Shown here piece by piece: positions 29,035-34,660 of a DNA stretch of 64,000 nucleotides. Position numbers and translations under genes: made by a program. Origin of the DNA: Chlorobaculum sp. (lineage in GTDB: Bacteria; Bacteroidota; Chlorobiia; Chlorobiales; Chlorobiaceae); NCBI GenBank assembly GCA_035560975.1, contig DATMYL010000022.1, positions 921 through 64,920 on the forward strand. The letters run 5' to 3'. The notes beneath the pieces are model-generated. The model had not been told where the DNA came from. It saw only the letters and a list, made by a program, of their open reading frames with translations, and did not search any database. Positions within the stretch are counted from its first letter, which is position 1. Each line of letters opens with the position of its first letter.

Positions 29035-30576
29035 ATGTTCTCCAAGCTCAAGCTCCTTGCAAAGGATACGGTCATTTACGGAGCGAGCACTATTCTCGCC
29101 AGGAGCCTCAACTACATCCTCGTCCCGCTTTACGCCAATAAACTCTCGACGTTCGATAACGGCATACAGGCGGTCGTCTACGCCAATATCGCCCTGGCCA
29201 ATGTGCTTTTCTGCTACGGGCTTGAAACCTCATATCTGAAGGTCGCTTCCGACGCCATCAAGAAAAACGAGGATGAGCGGCGCTATTTCTCAACGGCGTT
29301 CATCAGCCTGTTGGTCACCTCGACGCTTTTCGCACTTCTGATCGTCCTGTTCGCCCCGGACATAGCCTCGCTGATCGGCCTGGCACCTGAATCAGGCACG
29401 TTTATCCGTTATGCCGCACTCATCCTGTGGCTCGATACGATGCTGGTCGTTCCGTTCGCTGAAATGAGGCTGAAGAGGAAAGCCGTCCGGTTCGCACTCG
29501 CGAAAATCATGGGGGTCGTCGGGGGCGTCGTGAGTGCTTTCGTGCTTCTCATTCCCCTCAAGGCGGGTCTGGCAGGAGTGTTCATCGCCGAAGCGATCGG
29601 ATCACTCGTGAGCCTGGTCATGGTGTTGCCGGTACTGATTCGCATGAAGCCCGGTTTTTCGTTCGATCTGTACCGTGACCTTCTGCGCATCGGTCTCCCT
29701 TACGTGCCGACTGGAATTGCCGGCCTTCTCATCCATCTGATCGACAGGAACCTGCTCATCCGGATTCCCCAGAGTGATGTAGAACGTCTTTACGGCGCCG
29801 GGCTCCATGCTTCTGACATCACAGGCATCTATGGGCGCGTGGCTGCGTTCGGCGTCGTCCTGCAACTCGTCATCCAGGTGTTCAGGTTCGCATGGCAGCC
29901 TTTTTTCCTCCAGCATGCGGACGACCCTGAGGCTAAACGCCTGTTCAGGCAGGTGCTCAACCTGTCGACCATCATGGTCATCGTGCTGGCCGTGGCGGCG
30001 ACCTTTTTTGTCCCTGACCTTGTCCGTTACCATTATGGAGGGCGCCTCTATCTGCTGCCTCCTAAATACTGGATCGGCCTTTCTATCCTTCCCTGGATCT
30101 TTTTCAGTTATGTCTTCGACATGATTTCGACCAACCTTTCTGCCGGCCTCCTGATTACAGGTAACACCCGCTACCTTCCCGTGGTTACCTTCGCAGGTGC
30201 CGTCGTCACCACCGTGGCCTGCTGGATGCTGATTCCGGTCAGCGGCATGGACGGTGCGGCCATTGCGATTCTTGCCGGCACTGCGGTCATGTGCGTCACC
30301 ATGGCCTGGTTTTCGCTCAAGGTCTATCCGCTTCGCTACGACTGGGGACGTCTCAGCCTGCTTCTGGCATCCGGCCTCATGTTTGCCGCTTATCATGACG
30401 ACCTGATTCTTTACCTCGGCCGATTCGGCGTGAGCGGCGGGATGTCGCTTCTGCTGAAACTGTTGATCGTGCTGGTCTATCTCGGTCTTGGTACGCTTAT
30501 CTTCCGAAGCGAGGCTACGGCTGTGGCGCGTTTGGTGCAGGAGAAGCTTCGTCCGGCAGGGGGTTCCGGAAAGTAA
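29035..30576 (+). CDS. Polysaccharide biosynthesis flippase-like (MATE/MOP superfamily) membrane protein
   Basis: About 13-14 hydrophobic segments, '[10 protein letters not shown]...FRFAWQPFF', N-terminal 'KDTVIYG'. Confidence 0.8.
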
Positions 30577-31388
30577 TGATTCGTGTGGCCACCGTCCAGT
30601 ATACGCCCGTCCACGGCTGCAGGCAGTCGAACATCAGGGCGATCAGGAACCTGATAGAGCCGGTCGAGGCGGACATTTTCATCCTTCCTGAGCTCTGCAC
30701 GAGCGGATATTTTTTTCTGTCGAAGGGTGAACTGGCACCGCTTGCCGAGGATATCCGTTCAGAAGCCTCCAAGGCGTTCCAGCGGATGGCGGTCGCAAAG
30801 AACGCCATGATTGTCGCGGGTATGGCCGAAGCGGCGGGGGATTTGTTCTACAACTCGGTATTTGTTTTCCGCCCGGACGGCAGCGAGCCCCTGGTATACC
30901 GGAAATCGCACCTCTTTTACAAGGAATCGCTTGTTTTTGAACGGGGGGATACCGGTTTTCCGGTCATCCGGGACGAGCGGCTCGACTTGTCGGTAGGTAT
31001 CATGCTTTGCTACGACTGGCGTTTTCCGGAAGCAGCGAGGGTGCTTGCCCTTGAGGGTGCCGATATCATCGCATGTCCTTCCAACCTGGTGACCGATGCG
31101 TGGATCAAGGTCATGCCGGCGCGCGCTATTGAAAACAAGCTGTTCGTGGCCGTGGCAAATCGTGCCGGCAACGAAACAAAGATGGGGGAGACTCTGGTTT
31201 TCAAGGGCCGATCCGCCCTCTACGACCCATGGGGTGAAGCGGTCGCCGAGGCCGGCCCATCAGGTGACACGGTGCTTCTATCGGAAATCGATCACCGACT
31301 TTCCCGTGACAAGCGCTTCAATGATTTCAACGATATTTTCGTCGACAGGCGTCCTGATCTGTACGGCACTCTTTGCCGGCAACGCTGA
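30576..31388 (+). CDS. Carbon-nitrogen hydrolase (nitrilase superfamily)
   Basis: E-K-C triad: LPELCTSGY, YRKSHLF, LCYDWRFPE; TAATG overlap with the upstream gene. Confidence 0.9.
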   Translation: MIRVATVQYTPVHGCRQSNIRAIRNLIEPVEADIFILPELCTSGYFFLSKGELAPLAEDIRSEASKAFQRMAVAKNAMIVAGMAEAAGDLFYNSVFVFRPDGSEPLVYRKSHLFYKESLVFERGDTGFPVIRDERLDLSVGIMLCYDWRFPEAARVLALEGADIIACPSNLVTDAWIKVMPARAIENKLFVAVANRAGNETKMGETLVFKGRSALYDPWGEAVAEAGPSGDTVLLSEIDHRLSRDKRFNDFNDIFVDRRPDLYGTLCRQR

Positions 31389-31484: not shown

Positions 31485-32045
31485 TCAGCGAAGCGTGGCC
31501 GGAGGGGGTGGCGGTGGTCCGGGGTGCTTAATGCCGTGGCGACCGTCTGGCGGACCGCCTCTTATTACGGCGGAACGCTGGTACCGCATGGTATAGATAT
31601 TGCTGAGGAGCGTCCCCAGTGAATCTCGTTGAGCAGGAGTGCAGAGTTCGGCCAGCTCGTGAAAGTGGGTGGCAAGGTCTTTTTCGATCTTTGACTGGCG
31701 CTTGCCGATGCTGTCGGCGATTGAGCTCAGTTTGGCTTTGTCGGGATCGGGTTTGACCGCTTCGTTGATCAGCTCTTTTTTCAGGGCTATGATCTTCTGG
31801 ACTTCAGGCATGGTATTGCGGAAATGCTGTTCCCGGAGTTTCGTGAACTCAGCTTTCTGCTTTTCGTTCAGGGCCAGTTCCTGACTTGAATGAACGTTCC
31901 GGCTGTAATATTGTGTGACCTCGACGGAGCGAAAGCTTCGTGTGGCTATGTTCTGCCACCAGAGCACTCCCAGCAGAGTGATGTTGAGCATGACGAGCAG
32001 GACAAGAGCCGCCGTCACGAGCCGTTTCGAAGAAAGGAAATCCAT
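31485..32045 (-). CDS. Membrane-anchored periplasmic helical protein (Spy/CpxP or CnrX-like heavy-metal-sensor family)
   Basis: N-terminal TM, LNEKQKAEF and CTPAQR (LTXXQ-like), helical body, Pro-rich tail. Confidence 0.7.
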   Translation of the reverse strand: MDFLSSKRLVTAALVLLVMLNITLLGVLWWQNIATRSFRSVEVTQYYSRNVHSSQELALNEKQKAEFTKLREQHFRNTMPEVQKIIALKKELINEAVKPDPDKAKLSSIADSIGKRQSKIEKDLATHFHELAELCTPAQRDSLGTLLSNIYTMRYQRSAVIRGGPPDGRHGIKHPGPPPPPPATLR

Positions 32046-32163
32046 CTGTCACCATTAAGATTTTCGTCGCATGCCGAGGCTGTCTGTGTCTGTTCAGGCA
32101 GCCTCACGGCAATCGCCCATGGTCATGCGGCGTGTTGTTAGTTACTTATCCAATGCCCTCGTT

Positions 32164-32547
32164 TCAGCGATCTGCGGCCGACTGGTCATAATAGGAGAGA
32201 GCCGGCCCGCCATAATCCTCACTGAGCGATTCTGCCAGTCCGCTGGAAACGCTGACCGTCGATTGCGGAGTCTCATGCAGGAAAAACAGCATGGCCGAAG
32301 CGATGTTCAGGATCAGCAGCAGTCCCATGAAAGCCAGCCTTGGATTGAATCCGCCGGCGAAAGCGACGGCAAACGTGTTCCTGCTCTCCAGTGAGTCGAT
32401 GCGCTGCATCAGGTGCGCCCTGAAAAGGTGATGCACCTCAAGCCGCGGCATGTCGTCCAGTATCTTGAGCGTCTTTTCGACCTCAGCGTTATTTTGTTCA
32501 GTGCTTCTGTTCATATCGGTATCATGTTTCAAAATATATGACGACAA
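32164..32547 (-). CDS. Putative small single-TM anti-sigma factor
   Basis: Directly follows the ECF sigma; cytoplasmic 'LDDMPRLEVHHLFRAHLMQRI', one TM, short acidic tail. Alternative start at 32514. Confidence 0.6.
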   Translation of the reverse strand: MSSYILKHDTDMNRSTEQNNAEVEKTLKILDDMPRLEVHHLFRAHLMQRIDSLESRNTFAVAFAGGFNPRLAFMGLLLILNIASAMLFFLHETPQSTVSVSSGLAESLSEDYGGPALSYYDQSAADR

Positions 32548-32578
32548 TGTCCGCGGAAACTTGTGCTTTTCTTGCAGC

Positions 32579-33166
32579 TCAATTGACAGCCCGGTAATGA
32601 CGTTCCAGTCGGGACTGCAGATTTTTTTTTGCCCTGTGGATCAGCGATTCGACCGCAGGGACGGTCGTCTGGAGAATGTCGGCAATCTCCTGATTGCTGT
32701 ATCCGTCCTGCTTGCTCAGGAGGAACGCTGTTTTCTGGTTGTCGGGCAGCGCGTCGAGAGCCTCCTGCAGAACTGCAACCCGCTCCTTGTCTGTGAGTAC
32801 ATCGGCAGGATTGTCATGGTCAGGGGCCGGGATCGAATCGGCAGGATCATCGACTCCGATGATCCTTTTGAGCGAACTGAACCGTTTTTTTCGTTTCTGG
32901 CGTCGCAGGTGGTCAAGTGATTTGCTCACCGCGATCCTGTAAATCCACGTGGATAGTTTGGACTCTTCACGGAACTTGTCGATCGAACGATAGACTTCGA
33001 CGAAAACCTCTTGCGCCAGATCTTCAGCGTCTTCACGGTTGAATACGAATCGGTAGCAGGTATTGACGACCATCTCCTGATGCTCGGCGACAAGATCGCT
33101 GAAAAAGCGTTCTCCTGATGTTATTGCCTGTTGCTCCAATGGTCGAACTTTAGCGTGGGTCTGCAT
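32579..33166 (-). CDS. ECF RNA polymerase sigma factor
   Basis: Region 2 ([25 protein letters not shown]) and region 4 ([22 protein letters not shown]); no region 3. Confidence 0.93.
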
Positions 33167-33277: not shown

Positions 33278-34660
33278 TCAACCGAGTTTTGATGCAAAAG
33301 TGAGTACCGACTCCACTTTTTCCGGAGAGTCCGCTTCGCAATAGATCCTGAGCACCGGTTCTGTCCCCGACGGTCTGATCAGCAGCCAGCCACCCTCGAA
33401 ATGGTATTTGAATCCGTCGAGATTGGAGAATCCGGTCACCGGATATCCGGCAATTGCGGTGAGGCTACCGGTCGACGCGGCGGAAATGATAGCCTCTTTT
33501 TTAGCGTCGGATACACGCAGGTCGAGACGGTTGTAACAGAAAAATCCGTACTCGTCGAAAAGTTCTTCGACAAGGCCGGAGAGCGTTTTCTGCCTGCGGG
33601 CCATGATTTCGAGAAGCAGCAGTCCGATATAGACGCCATCCCGTTCCGGCAGGAAGGAGGTGATGCCGATTCCTCCGGACTCTTCGCCTCCGATGAGGAT
33701 GTCGTTTGTGGTCATCAGACGGCTGACATGCTTGAATCCGACAGGAAGCAGGTGCATTTTGAGGTCGTGTTTGCTGCAGATCCTGTCGATGACGTCGGTC
33801 AGTGCGAATGTTTTGGCAACCTCGCCCCGCTCGCCTTTCTGTTCGACGAGGTATTTGAGGATGATGGCGAACATTTTGTGCGAATCTACGAACACGCCGT
33901 TCTCGTCGAGCATGCCTACGCGGTCGGCATCTCCGTCGTTGATGATGGCGACGTCGGTCTTGACCTCGTTGAAGAAATCAACGAAATCGCCGATATACTG
34001 CGGAATCGGTTCAGGGTTGATTCCGTCGAATCCGGGATTTACCGAGCAGTGGTAGCAGTTGATCATCGATTCGTCGAGCAGGCGGGTAATGAGATCCTGT
34101 CCAGCGCCGAACATGGCGTTATGGGCGATTTTCAGCTGCGATTCCCTGATCAGCGCGAGGTCCAGCTTCGATTTGAGGTAGTCGACGTAATGGGTCTTGA
34201 TATCGGTCATCGTGATCAGGTTCGTCGCAGGGACGGCCGGATCAGCGGGATCGACCGTGAGGAGGTTCCTTTCGATCTCATCGATGACTTCGGGGTGGGC
34301 CGGACCTCCGTAGGAGGCTTTAACCTTGAACCCGTTGTATATGGGAGGATTGTGCGATGCAGTGATCATGACTCCGCCGGCAAGACGGTGGTCGCGTGTA
34401 TAGAGAGAGACTGCGGGGGTCGAAACGAAGGCGTCCGAGAGGAAAACCCTGAGGCCCATCGATGAAAGTATTTCAGCTGTATAGCGGGCAAACTCTTTCG
34501 ACATGAATCGGGTGTCGTAGCCGACGCATACTCCGTTTGCCCTGTCGGGATGGGAGAGGAAATATTTCCCGGAGGCCAGGGCGGTCAATTTGAGATTATC
34601 GTAAGTGTAGTCTTTGGCTATAATTGCCCTCCAACCATCGGTTCCGAATTTGACTTGCAT
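33278..34660 (-). CDS. Phosphoglucomutase/phosphomannomutase family protein
   Basis: FGTDGWR, TASHNP, DGDADR, GGEESGG, RPSGTEP. Confidence 0.92.
   Translation of the reverse strand: MQVKFGTDGWRAIIAKDYTYDNLKLTALASGKYFLSHPDRANGVCVGYDTRFMSKEFARYTAEILSSMGLRVFLSDAFVSTPAVSLYTRDHRLAGGVMITASHNPPIYNGFKVKASYGGPAHPEVIDEIERNLLTVDPADPAVPATNLITMTDIKTHYVDYLKSKLDLALIRESQLKIAHNAMFGAGQDLITRLLDESMINCYHCSVNPGFDGINPEPIPQYIGDFVDFFNEVKTDVAIINDGDADRVGMLDENGVFVDSHKMFAIILKYLVEQKGERGEVAKTFALTDVIDRICSKHDLKMHLLPVGFKHVSRLMTTNDILIGGEESGGIGITSFLPERDGVYIGLLLLEIMARRQKTLSGLVEELFDEYGFFCYNRLDLRVSDAKKEAIISAASTGSLTAIAGYPVTGFSNLDGFKYHFEGGWLLIRPSGTEPVLRIYCEADSPEKVESVLTFASKLG

Follow-up and report, generated by a model that had tools for sequence, protein, structure and literature searches.

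A conserved trio of an ECF sigma factor, a putative mini anti-sigma factor and a membrane-tethered CpxP-like protein in Chlorobaculum: a candidate envelope-stress switch

The envelope-stress circuits of Escherichia coli, which comprise σE-RseA-RseB with the small RNAs (sRNAs) MicA, RybB and MicL and the CpxA-CpxP/Spy system, use a periplasmic accessory protein (RseB or CpxP) to tune a signal transducer in the membrane; the target of CpxP is a histidine kinase and not an anti-sigma factor. In the CnrY-CnrX-CnrH system of Cupriavidus metallidurans, an extracytoplasmic function (ECF) sigma factor is combined with a very short anti-sigma factor containing a single transmembrane helix and with a membrane-anchored helical hairpin of the PF13801 family. 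A corresponding combination, in which the anti-sigma factor is putative, is encoded on the minus strand between positions 31485 and 33166 of the window, the whole 64,000-nucleotide stretch of Chlorobaculum sp. DNA analysed here (assembly GCA_035560975.1, contig DATMYL010000022.1, positions 921 to 64,920). By a modest balance of probability, these three genes constitute a self-regulated three-component envelope-stress switch.

CnrY belongs to the class II anti-sigma factors and has two helices that imitate the first and fourth helices of class I domains (PMC7406223). In the classification of ECF sigma factors CnrH falls into group ECF291, with CnrY at position −2, whilst in groups ECF281 and ECF290 position +1 is taken by an anti-sigma factor and +2 by a “heavy-metal resistance” PF13801 protein, the anti-sigma factor being of the zinc-finger (ZAS) type in ECF281 and RskA-like in ECF290 (Casas-Pastor et al. 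2021, PMC7826278). The Chlorobaculum trio matches the +1/+2 layout of ECF281 and ECF290, but its +1 protein contains no cysteine and no class I anti-sigma domain and is of neither anti-sigma type. Only 6% of Bacteroidetes ECF sigma factors have a class I anti-sigma factor nearby, and the RpoE-like Bacteroidetes group ECF03 has no conserved anti-sigma factor in its neighbourhood (PMC7406223).

The nearest experimentally tested analogue is the cirY/cirZ-spy operon of Phocaeicola vulgatus, which is induced 130–155-fold in colitis and in which deleting cirZ relieves the repression of cirY, of spy on the same transcript and of two adjacent genes (Gut Microbes 2026, PMC13114119). It comes from the same phylum as the trio and shares with it the gene order, an anti-sigma factor (putative in the trio) of about 120 residues with one transmembrane helix, autoregulation (probable here) and a very small regulon (predicted here from motifs); the inducer of cirYZ-spy is gut inflammation. 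The trio resembles the E. coli circuits in its probably autoregulated sigma factor, an extra predicted sigma-dependent promoter before the anti-sigma gene, and candidate outputs that include a Spy/CpxP-family protein and an sRNA, although RseA and RseB are unrelated to the anti-sigma candidate and accessory protein described here and the sRNA of the trio is only predicted.

Gene content, distribution and synteny

The ECF sigma gene occupies positions 32579–33166, the gene for the 116-residue putative mini anti-sigma factor 32164–32514 and that for the 186-residue transmembrane-anchored PF13801 protein 31485–32045, all on the minus strand, so that the three co-oriented genes proposed from the sequence alone (the original prediction) are all present as open reading frames. 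They are separated by spacers of 64 nt (sigma to anti-sigma) and 118 nt (anti-sigma to PF13801 gene), and the sigma and anti-sigma genes lie in different reading frames. Their orthologues in Chlorobaculum tepidum, a model organism for green sulfur bacteria, carry the locus tags CT0278, CT0277 and CT0276, which gives the trio a point of entry in that organism. In strain TLS the two genes downstream of the sigma gene are AAM71523 (CT0277 by position) and CT0276, and it is from these neighbours, together with the listing in a preprint (10.1101/172254), that the sigma factor is equated with CT0278. The preprint lists three ECF sigma factors for C. tepidum, CT0278 among them, and a literature search for CT0278 expression data found only this listing; the genome studied here also has three ECF genes, that of the trio included. 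Within the genus, the sigma factor is 86–94% identical, the middle protein 47–76% and the third protein 58–76%.

In a survey of 301 Bacteroidota genomes, 64 of them from Chlorobiaceae, the mini-protein family is found in 63 of the 64 Chlorobiaceae and in 49 of the 237 others. When 50 loci were scanned with home-made hidden Markov models, the mini-protein gene was always directly downstream of an ECF gene, and 48 loci retained the order of sigma gene, mini-protein gene and PF13801 gene with all three in one orientation. Among loci from distant Bacteroidota families the order holds for 19 of 20, with genes that commonly abut or overlap. This arrangement is far beyond chance. Virtually all Chlorobiaceae genomes, and those of many other Bacteroidota, retain the trio, and its proteins are all unstudied in these lineages. 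It was originally presented as a switch of an anoxygenic phototroph; its spread through non-phototrophic Bacteroidota shows that it is not specific to phototrophs. Many Chlorobiaceae outside Chlorobaculum have a tandem pair of PF13801 genes behind the mini anti-sigma gene (Chlorobium-type loci L023-L025, L030, L033, L034, L036, L038-L040 and L042).

The sigma factor is an ECF (group 4) σ70 factor that contains regions 2 and 4 only, with Pfam matches to Sigma70_r2 (77.5 bits) and Sigma70_r4_2 (59.3 bits) and a score of 117 bits against the NCBIfam ECF superfamily model TIGR02937 (cut-off 42.9). It is 195 residues long from the ATG at 33166 and 186 residues from a conserved TTG at 33139; several orthologues have the equivalent of this TTG as their sole possible start, so the N-terminus may be nine residues shorter. 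Its closest solved relatives are SigW, AlgU and RpoE, to which it is nearer than to CnrH (28% identity), and the description of the sigma factor as CnrH-like is accordingly not borne out.

The anti-sigma candidate and its tethered partner

The list of open reading frames starts the middle gene at a TTG (32547), whereas the conserved start is the ATG at 32514, which is preferred because all orthologues begin MNR and because a conserved promoter overlaps the TTG. The resulting 116-residue protein has a single transmembrane helix, a 37-residue acidic tail and no cysteine, hence no HxxxCxxC motif, in close agreement with the roughly 120 residues, single transmembrane helix, acidic tail of about 36 residues and missing ZAS motif originally described. 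It gives no zf-HC2 or RskA match, and is thus not a ZAS or RskA-like class I anti-sigma factor by these profiles, nor does it match any entry in Pfam, NCBIfam or a PDB sequence search. An AlphaFold model built on a 38-sequence alignment (mean predicted local distance difference test score, pLDDT, of 74) predicts two cytoplasmic helices (residues 3–20 and 29–53), a transmembrane helix (58–79) and a poorly defined tail, and a Foldseek search with this model returns zero matches. Since basic residues lie on the N-terminal side of the membrane helix and the tail is acidic, the protein is predicted to be oriented with its N-terminus in the cytoplasm and its C-terminus in the periplasm.

At the level of the genus the most conserved stretch is periplasmic, the tail sequence (E/D)DYGGPALSYYD being invariant, as is Asn70 within the transmembrane helix. 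Across the phylum the recurring features are IExEVxKTLxxLD in helix 1, PFFYTRLxxRI in helix 2, the transmembrane Asn (conserved in 90% or more) and an acidic tail rich in Tyr; the broad alignment contains no conserved stretch of 7–10 columns. A profile of the family recovers 170 clusters at E ≤ 1e-3 among 1.84 billion representative proteins, nearly all of 100–150 residues. These candidate minimal anti-sigma factors form a delimited family that databases do not annotate, and they occur in a phylum with few recognised class I anti-sigma factors. Four observations, namely a gene adjoining that of the sigma factor, the topology, a sigma-type promoter of its own and the behaviour of the analogous CirZ, lead us to infer that the middle protein is a minimal, class II-like anti-sigma factor. 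Its predicted architecture resembles that of CnrY, both having about two cytoplasmic helices, a transmembrane helix and a short periplasmic tail, in 95 residues for CnrY and 116 here. For a direct comparison, authentic CnrX and CnrY sequences from pMOL28 (structures PDB 2Y39/3EPV and 4CXF, respectively) were aligned using hhalign. Against CnrY only 19 transmembrane columns of the mini protein align, with E = 0.12, which does not amount to detectable homology.

The third protein scores 49.7 bits against PF13801 (Metal_resist; cut-off 29.2), covering profile positions 2–124 of 125, and 48.4 bits in a six-frame search of the genome, so that the Pfam assignment the original prediction had pointed to is obtained. 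The strings EQHFRNTM and THFHELAELC and the N-terminal transmembrane anchor, on which its description as an anchored Spy/CpxP-like protein was based, are likewise all present. AlphaFold predicts a long N-terminal transmembrane helix, a disordered linker (38–52), a hooked hairpin of three helices (61–162) and a disordered Pro-rich tail, with pLDDT above 90 across residues 61–140, and two LTxxQ-like motifs can be recognised (LNEKQ and CTPAQ). The top Foldseek matches in the PDB are 3itf (CpxP), 3lay (ZraP), 5io8 (Salmonella STV), 3zg1/3epv (CnrX), Spy and NccX, with probabilities of 0.99–1.00; the E-values are weak (5e-3 to 0.2), yet the family call of CpxP/Spy/ZraP/CnrX agrees with Pfam. The TM-score for ZraP is 0.8–0.9, and identities are about 16–20% to ZraP and CpxP and about 10% to CnrX. 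The modelled fold is that of CpxP, ZraP, Spy and CnrX. PDB sequence searches, using single proteins as well as profiles of the middle and third proteins, find no significant relatives, ZraP appearing only at E = 0.78. Public records name the third protein both “periplasmic heavy metal sensor” and “Spy/CpxP family protein refolding chaperone”; the former is a family name, and the function that it implies is unsupported here.

Residue conservation was counted over 39 trio-linked third proteins. The LTxxQ glutamines Q63 and Q139 occur in all 39, and in the second motif Cys replaces Leu in 30. Asn21, within the transmembrane anchor, is present in 38, H127 in 34 and H74 and C135 in 30 each, whilst H129 is found in 17, every one from Chlorobiaceae, a family in which the sequence HFH is invariant. 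Within the genus the anchor residues M1, F3, S6, R8, T11, L14 and N21 are all invariant. Such strong conservation of the anchor, including its membrane-embedded Asn, disfavours a cleaved signal peptide; a cleaved soluble chaperone with no link to sigma activity was one of the cases that the original prediction had named as contradicting it. The Pro-rich C-terminal tail (GPPPPPPATLR; encoded at 31485–31560) recurs in distant Bacteroidota orthologues, for example as MPPPPPPDG and EPPPFGEPPPPI; CpxP, Spy and CnrX are without it.

The Ni/Co site of CnrX is formed by H42, H46, E63 and H119 together with M123. In the hhalign alignment H119 corresponds to H127, which is invariant in Chlorobiaceae, and E63 to E72, a position that is variable between orthologues; an invariant Leu (L131) stands in place of M123, so that this ligand is lost, and H42 and H46 are without counterparts. 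From this alignment the third protein retains only one or two of the five ligands, and the CnrX metal site is not conserved. The genomic setting also differs, since the gene order here is sigma/anti-sigma/sensor instead of Y-X-H, and cnrCBA-type efflux genes lie next to cnrYXH whereas no efflux or metal-handling genes adjoin the trio. The likeness to CnrH-Y-X on which the original prediction was built thus extends to the architecture and the PF13801 fold, and not to the metal site, anti-sigma homology or genomic context.

The likeness to CirYZ-Spy is also partial. The P. vulgatus locus (L069) encodes a sigma factor of 178 residues, a CirZ of 120 residues with a single transmembrane helix and a secreted Spy-like protein of 182 residues, and its genome contains a second, paralogous trio. 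CirY is the best match in that genome to the sigma factor of the trio, with 34% identity. The broad mini-protein alignment matches CirZ at E = 0.01, over helix 2 and the transmembrane helix only, and the third-protein profile gives no alignment to the P. vulgatus Spy-like protein, which has a cleavable-looking signal peptide and no PF13801 match where the trio protein has a conserved transmembrane anchor. In the P. vulgatus genome neither the mini anti-sigma profile nor PF13801 finds a match, and a PF07813 search was negative or uninformative. Because the CirZ match is marginal and the profiles find nothing, CirYZ-Spy is regarded as an analogue and not as a demonstrable orthologue. Separately, the deletion primers given for “M0N98_1575” (cirZ) in PMC13114119 match the ends of a 431-residue Reo-like anti-sigma gene in P. 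vulgatus ATCC 8482 (L066, 3388–5270), which lies beside another ECF sigma gene and a NigD-like gene, and do not match the 120-residue gene of the cirY-spy locus; this may be a discrepancy of table or numbering in that paper.

Promoters and predicted outputs

When the DNA upstream of sigma genes is aligned at a recurrent CGTC box, the motif GCA[ATG]G[AG]A[TA]-N13-CGTCnnA emerges at 23 loci, four of them in distant Bacteroidota, with a spacer of 13 nt in 22 and of 14 nt in one. The motif fits the ECF pattern, which has AA in the −35 and CGT in the −10 element. In the window the putative promoter P1 (33245–33272, minus strand), located 5′ of the sigma gene, consists of the −35 element GCATGGAT (33272–33265), a 13-nt spacer and the −10 element CGTCCAA (33251–33245), and is the best match to the position weight matrix (PWM) genome-wide. 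A second putative promoter, P2 (32537–32564, minus strand), lies in the spacer between the sigma and anti-sigma genes, reads ACAAGTTT-N13-CGTCATA and ends 22 nt before the anti-sigma ATG. The P2 form, (A/G)CAAG(A/T/G)TT-N13-CGTCnnA, ends 21–32 nt (mostly 22–24) before the anti-sigma start at all 30 Chlorobiaceae loci and scores above the 99th percentile of random genome windows at 28 of them, and a motif of this type is also seen at several distant Bacteroidota loci. Since conserved ECF-type promoters precede both the sigma and the anti-sigma genes, the operon is probably self-regulated.

Over 46 Chlorobiaceae genomes the strict motif occurs at 168 sites, compared with 119 for a reversed control, an excess of about one site per genome that points to a very small regulon. 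Two candidate outputs can be recognised beyond the operon. In four Chlorobaculum species (L080-L083, from genomes G015, G008, G017 and G021) the motif lies 50–100 nt upstream of an unlinked, signal-peptide-bearing PF13801/Spy-like paralogue; this soluble protein, of 165–186 residues, is present as a second copy in 23 of 24 sister genomes. In seven Chlorobaculum genomes a conserved putative promoter, GCAAGG(A/T)(A/T)-N13-CGTCnnA, follows an A/T-rich tract and precedes a non-coding region of 217–253 nt. This candidate sRNA, located outside the window in the source genome (contig C23:2106–2360, plus strand; other copies L084-L089), has a U/G-rich 5′ part and ends in an intrinsic terminator; a long-range stem that includes five compensatory pairs is predicted in it, and a search of Rfam finds no family for it. 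In genome G004, taken to be C. tepidum TLS, the soluble paralogue lies at about 1.231 Mb and the sRNA promoter at about 392.4 kb.

Neither the PWM matches of the source genome nor the motif sites of the 46 Chlorobiaceae genomes include an efflux or metal-handling gene. Since a Spy-like protein and a candidate sRNA are the outputs that can be recognised, a role in envelope or protein-folding stress is suggested in preference to metal efflux, in contrast to the efflux output of Cnr. The regulon had been proposed to be remote; it is true that no efflux genes are adjacent, but the motif marks a very small predicted regulon that includes the operon itself alongside the Spy-like paralogue and the candidate sRNA. 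For further study the locus thus offers a precise promoter consensus and a correspondingly short list of predicted targets. The other PWM matches in the source genome were not counted in the regulon; they comprise those on C74 and C101, which lie inside coding sequence and are duplicated at contig ends, one at a secreted-protein gene (C11), one at a signal peptidase I gene (C46) and those on C48, C53 and C113, and for none of them is conservation across species shown.

Proposed mechanism and competing explanations

Gene content, synteny across the phylum, fold, features of topology and promoter conservation are shown by the comparisons above, whilst sigma binding, signalling by the tethered protein, the kind of signal and the mode of release are the conjectural parts of the proposed switch. 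In its resting state, the anti-sigma factor of 116 residues would use its cytoplasmic domain of two helices to keep the ECF sigma factor at the inner membrane. The tethered CpxP-family protein would sit beside the anti-sigma factor, the two making contact through their Asn-bearing transmembrane helices and the tail sequence DYGGPALSYYD. The tethered protein would act as a co-sensor or negative modulator, comparable to CpxP on CpxA, RseB on RseA or CnrX on CnrY. The signal would arise in the periplasm, most probably from envelope proteins that are unfolded or damaged, with a metal or a thiol-reactive species as the less probable source; it would titrate or change the tethered protein, upon which the anti-sigma factor would be inactivated by proteolysis or conformational change and the sigma factor freed. 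Transcription of its own operon from P1 would then provide positive feedback, whilst P2 would supply extra anti-sigma factor and tethered protein as negative feedback; in sister species the unlinked soluble Spy-like protein and the candidate sRNA may be switched on as well. Such a circuit would place a membrane-tethered CpxP/Spy-family protein under an ECF sigma pathway rather than a two-component kinase. The original prediction of an uncharacterised three-component envelope or metal-sensing switch survives as regards the uncharacterised trio, with the envelope half favoured, and loses the CnrX-type Ni/Co site.

Several points weigh against this envelope-stress switch. The mini protein is a candidate sigma binder only; it has no homology to CnrY beyond the transmembrane helix, and its similarity to CirZ is the marginal one given above. 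The tethered protein could be a chaperone that is simply co-transcribed as an output, the role ascribed to Spy in cirYZ-spy, and the conserved H74, H127 and C135 (30–34 of 39), joined by H129 in Chlorobiaceae, could also serve a metal or redox signal. Both the promoters and the sRNA are predictions from sequence conservation, and the soluble PF13801 paralogue was not found in the source genome, the assembly of which is 94% complete.

The strongest competitor is a two-component switch with a passenger chaperone, in which the mini anti-sigma factor senses alone and the PF13801 protein is only an output of the regulon. This is somewhat improbable, although the third gene of cirYZ-spy encodes a secreted, induced protein that is treated as an output (PMC13114119), P2 is placed to drive the anti-sigma and third genes together, as expected of a regulon member, and the tandem PF13801 copies of some Chlorobium loci suggest effector dosage. 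A highly conserved anchor, with its seven genus-invariant residues and a transmembrane Asn in 38 of 39 proteins, would be unusual for a mere export signal; the soluble paralogue, with its own sigma-type promoter, already fills the output role; and the +2 position is held in strict synteny across a phylum. Moreover, the 37-residue tail of the anti-sigma candidate is too short for a sensing domain, yet its invariant motif implies a partner. A CnrYXH-like metal sensor, whose tethered PF13801 protein would bind a periplasmic transition metal, signal through the mini anti-sigma factor and switch on remote metal-resistance genes, is unlikely. The Pfam family, fold and membrane anchor are those of CnrX and NccX, H127 aligns with the CnrX ligand H119, the His and Cys residues counted above are conserved (HFH invariably so in Chlorobiaceae), the NCBI name is “periplasmic heavy metal sensor” and the contexts of ECF281, ECF290 and ECF291 are tied to metal stress (PMC7826278). 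These are outweighed by the unmatched H42 and H46, the invariant Leu at M123 and the variable E63 column, by nearest neighbours that are ZraP and CpxP and not CnrX, and by recognisable outputs that are a Spy-like protein and a candidate sRNA, with no efflux or metal gene either adjacent or bearing the motif; the NCBI name labels the family and does not reflect a tested function.

Far less probable still is that the middle protein is some other small membrane protein and no anti-sigma factor, the sigma factor being controlled transcriptionally or by an unlinked regulator. No anti-sigma domain family, Foldseek match or CnrY homology identifies it, and the RpoE-like ECF03 sigma factors of Bacteroidetes have no recognised anti-sigma factor nearby (PMC7406223). 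Against this stand its invariable +1 position beside the ECF gene, often with overlap, a predicted N-in topology in which the two cytoplasmic helices are as long as those of the class II factor CnrY, a dedicated sigma-type promoter, and the genetics of CirZ, which matches it in size and architecture and whose deletion has the effect expected for an anti-sigma factor (PMC13114119).

Beyond the envelope-stress switch itself, a bolder proposal can be put forward tentatively, as a possibility with the weight of probability against it. The mini family might be the “missing” anti-sigma factor of RpoE-like ECF sigma factors in Bacteroidota and Chlorobiaceae, working only as a membrane-embedded pair with an obligatory CpxP-like sensor, for which the Asn-bearing transmembrane helices and the tail motif would form the interface, and complemented by a repressor arm in the form of the sRNA. 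If this is true, a Spy/CpxP-family protein would be an obligatory sensor of an ECF pathway and not its output, and a sigma-dependent sRNA arm of about 220–250 nt would parallel that of σE with MicA and RybB in E. coli.

As to the surroundings of the trio, a phosphoglucomutase/phosphomannomutase-like gene (33278–34660, minus strand) ends with its stop codon 6 nt before P1, and a nitrilase/CN-hydrolase-family gene (30576–31388, plus strand) is convergent with the trio, both being judged from their translations; neither has an evident functional tie to the trio. The spacer between the anti-sigma and PF13801 genes contains a predicted, moderately stable RNA hairpin (32066–32132, minus strand; −37.5 kcal/mol, z = −2.07 against shuffles) whose significance is uncertain, and in Bacteroidota outside Chlorobi the two genes abut or overlap at this place.

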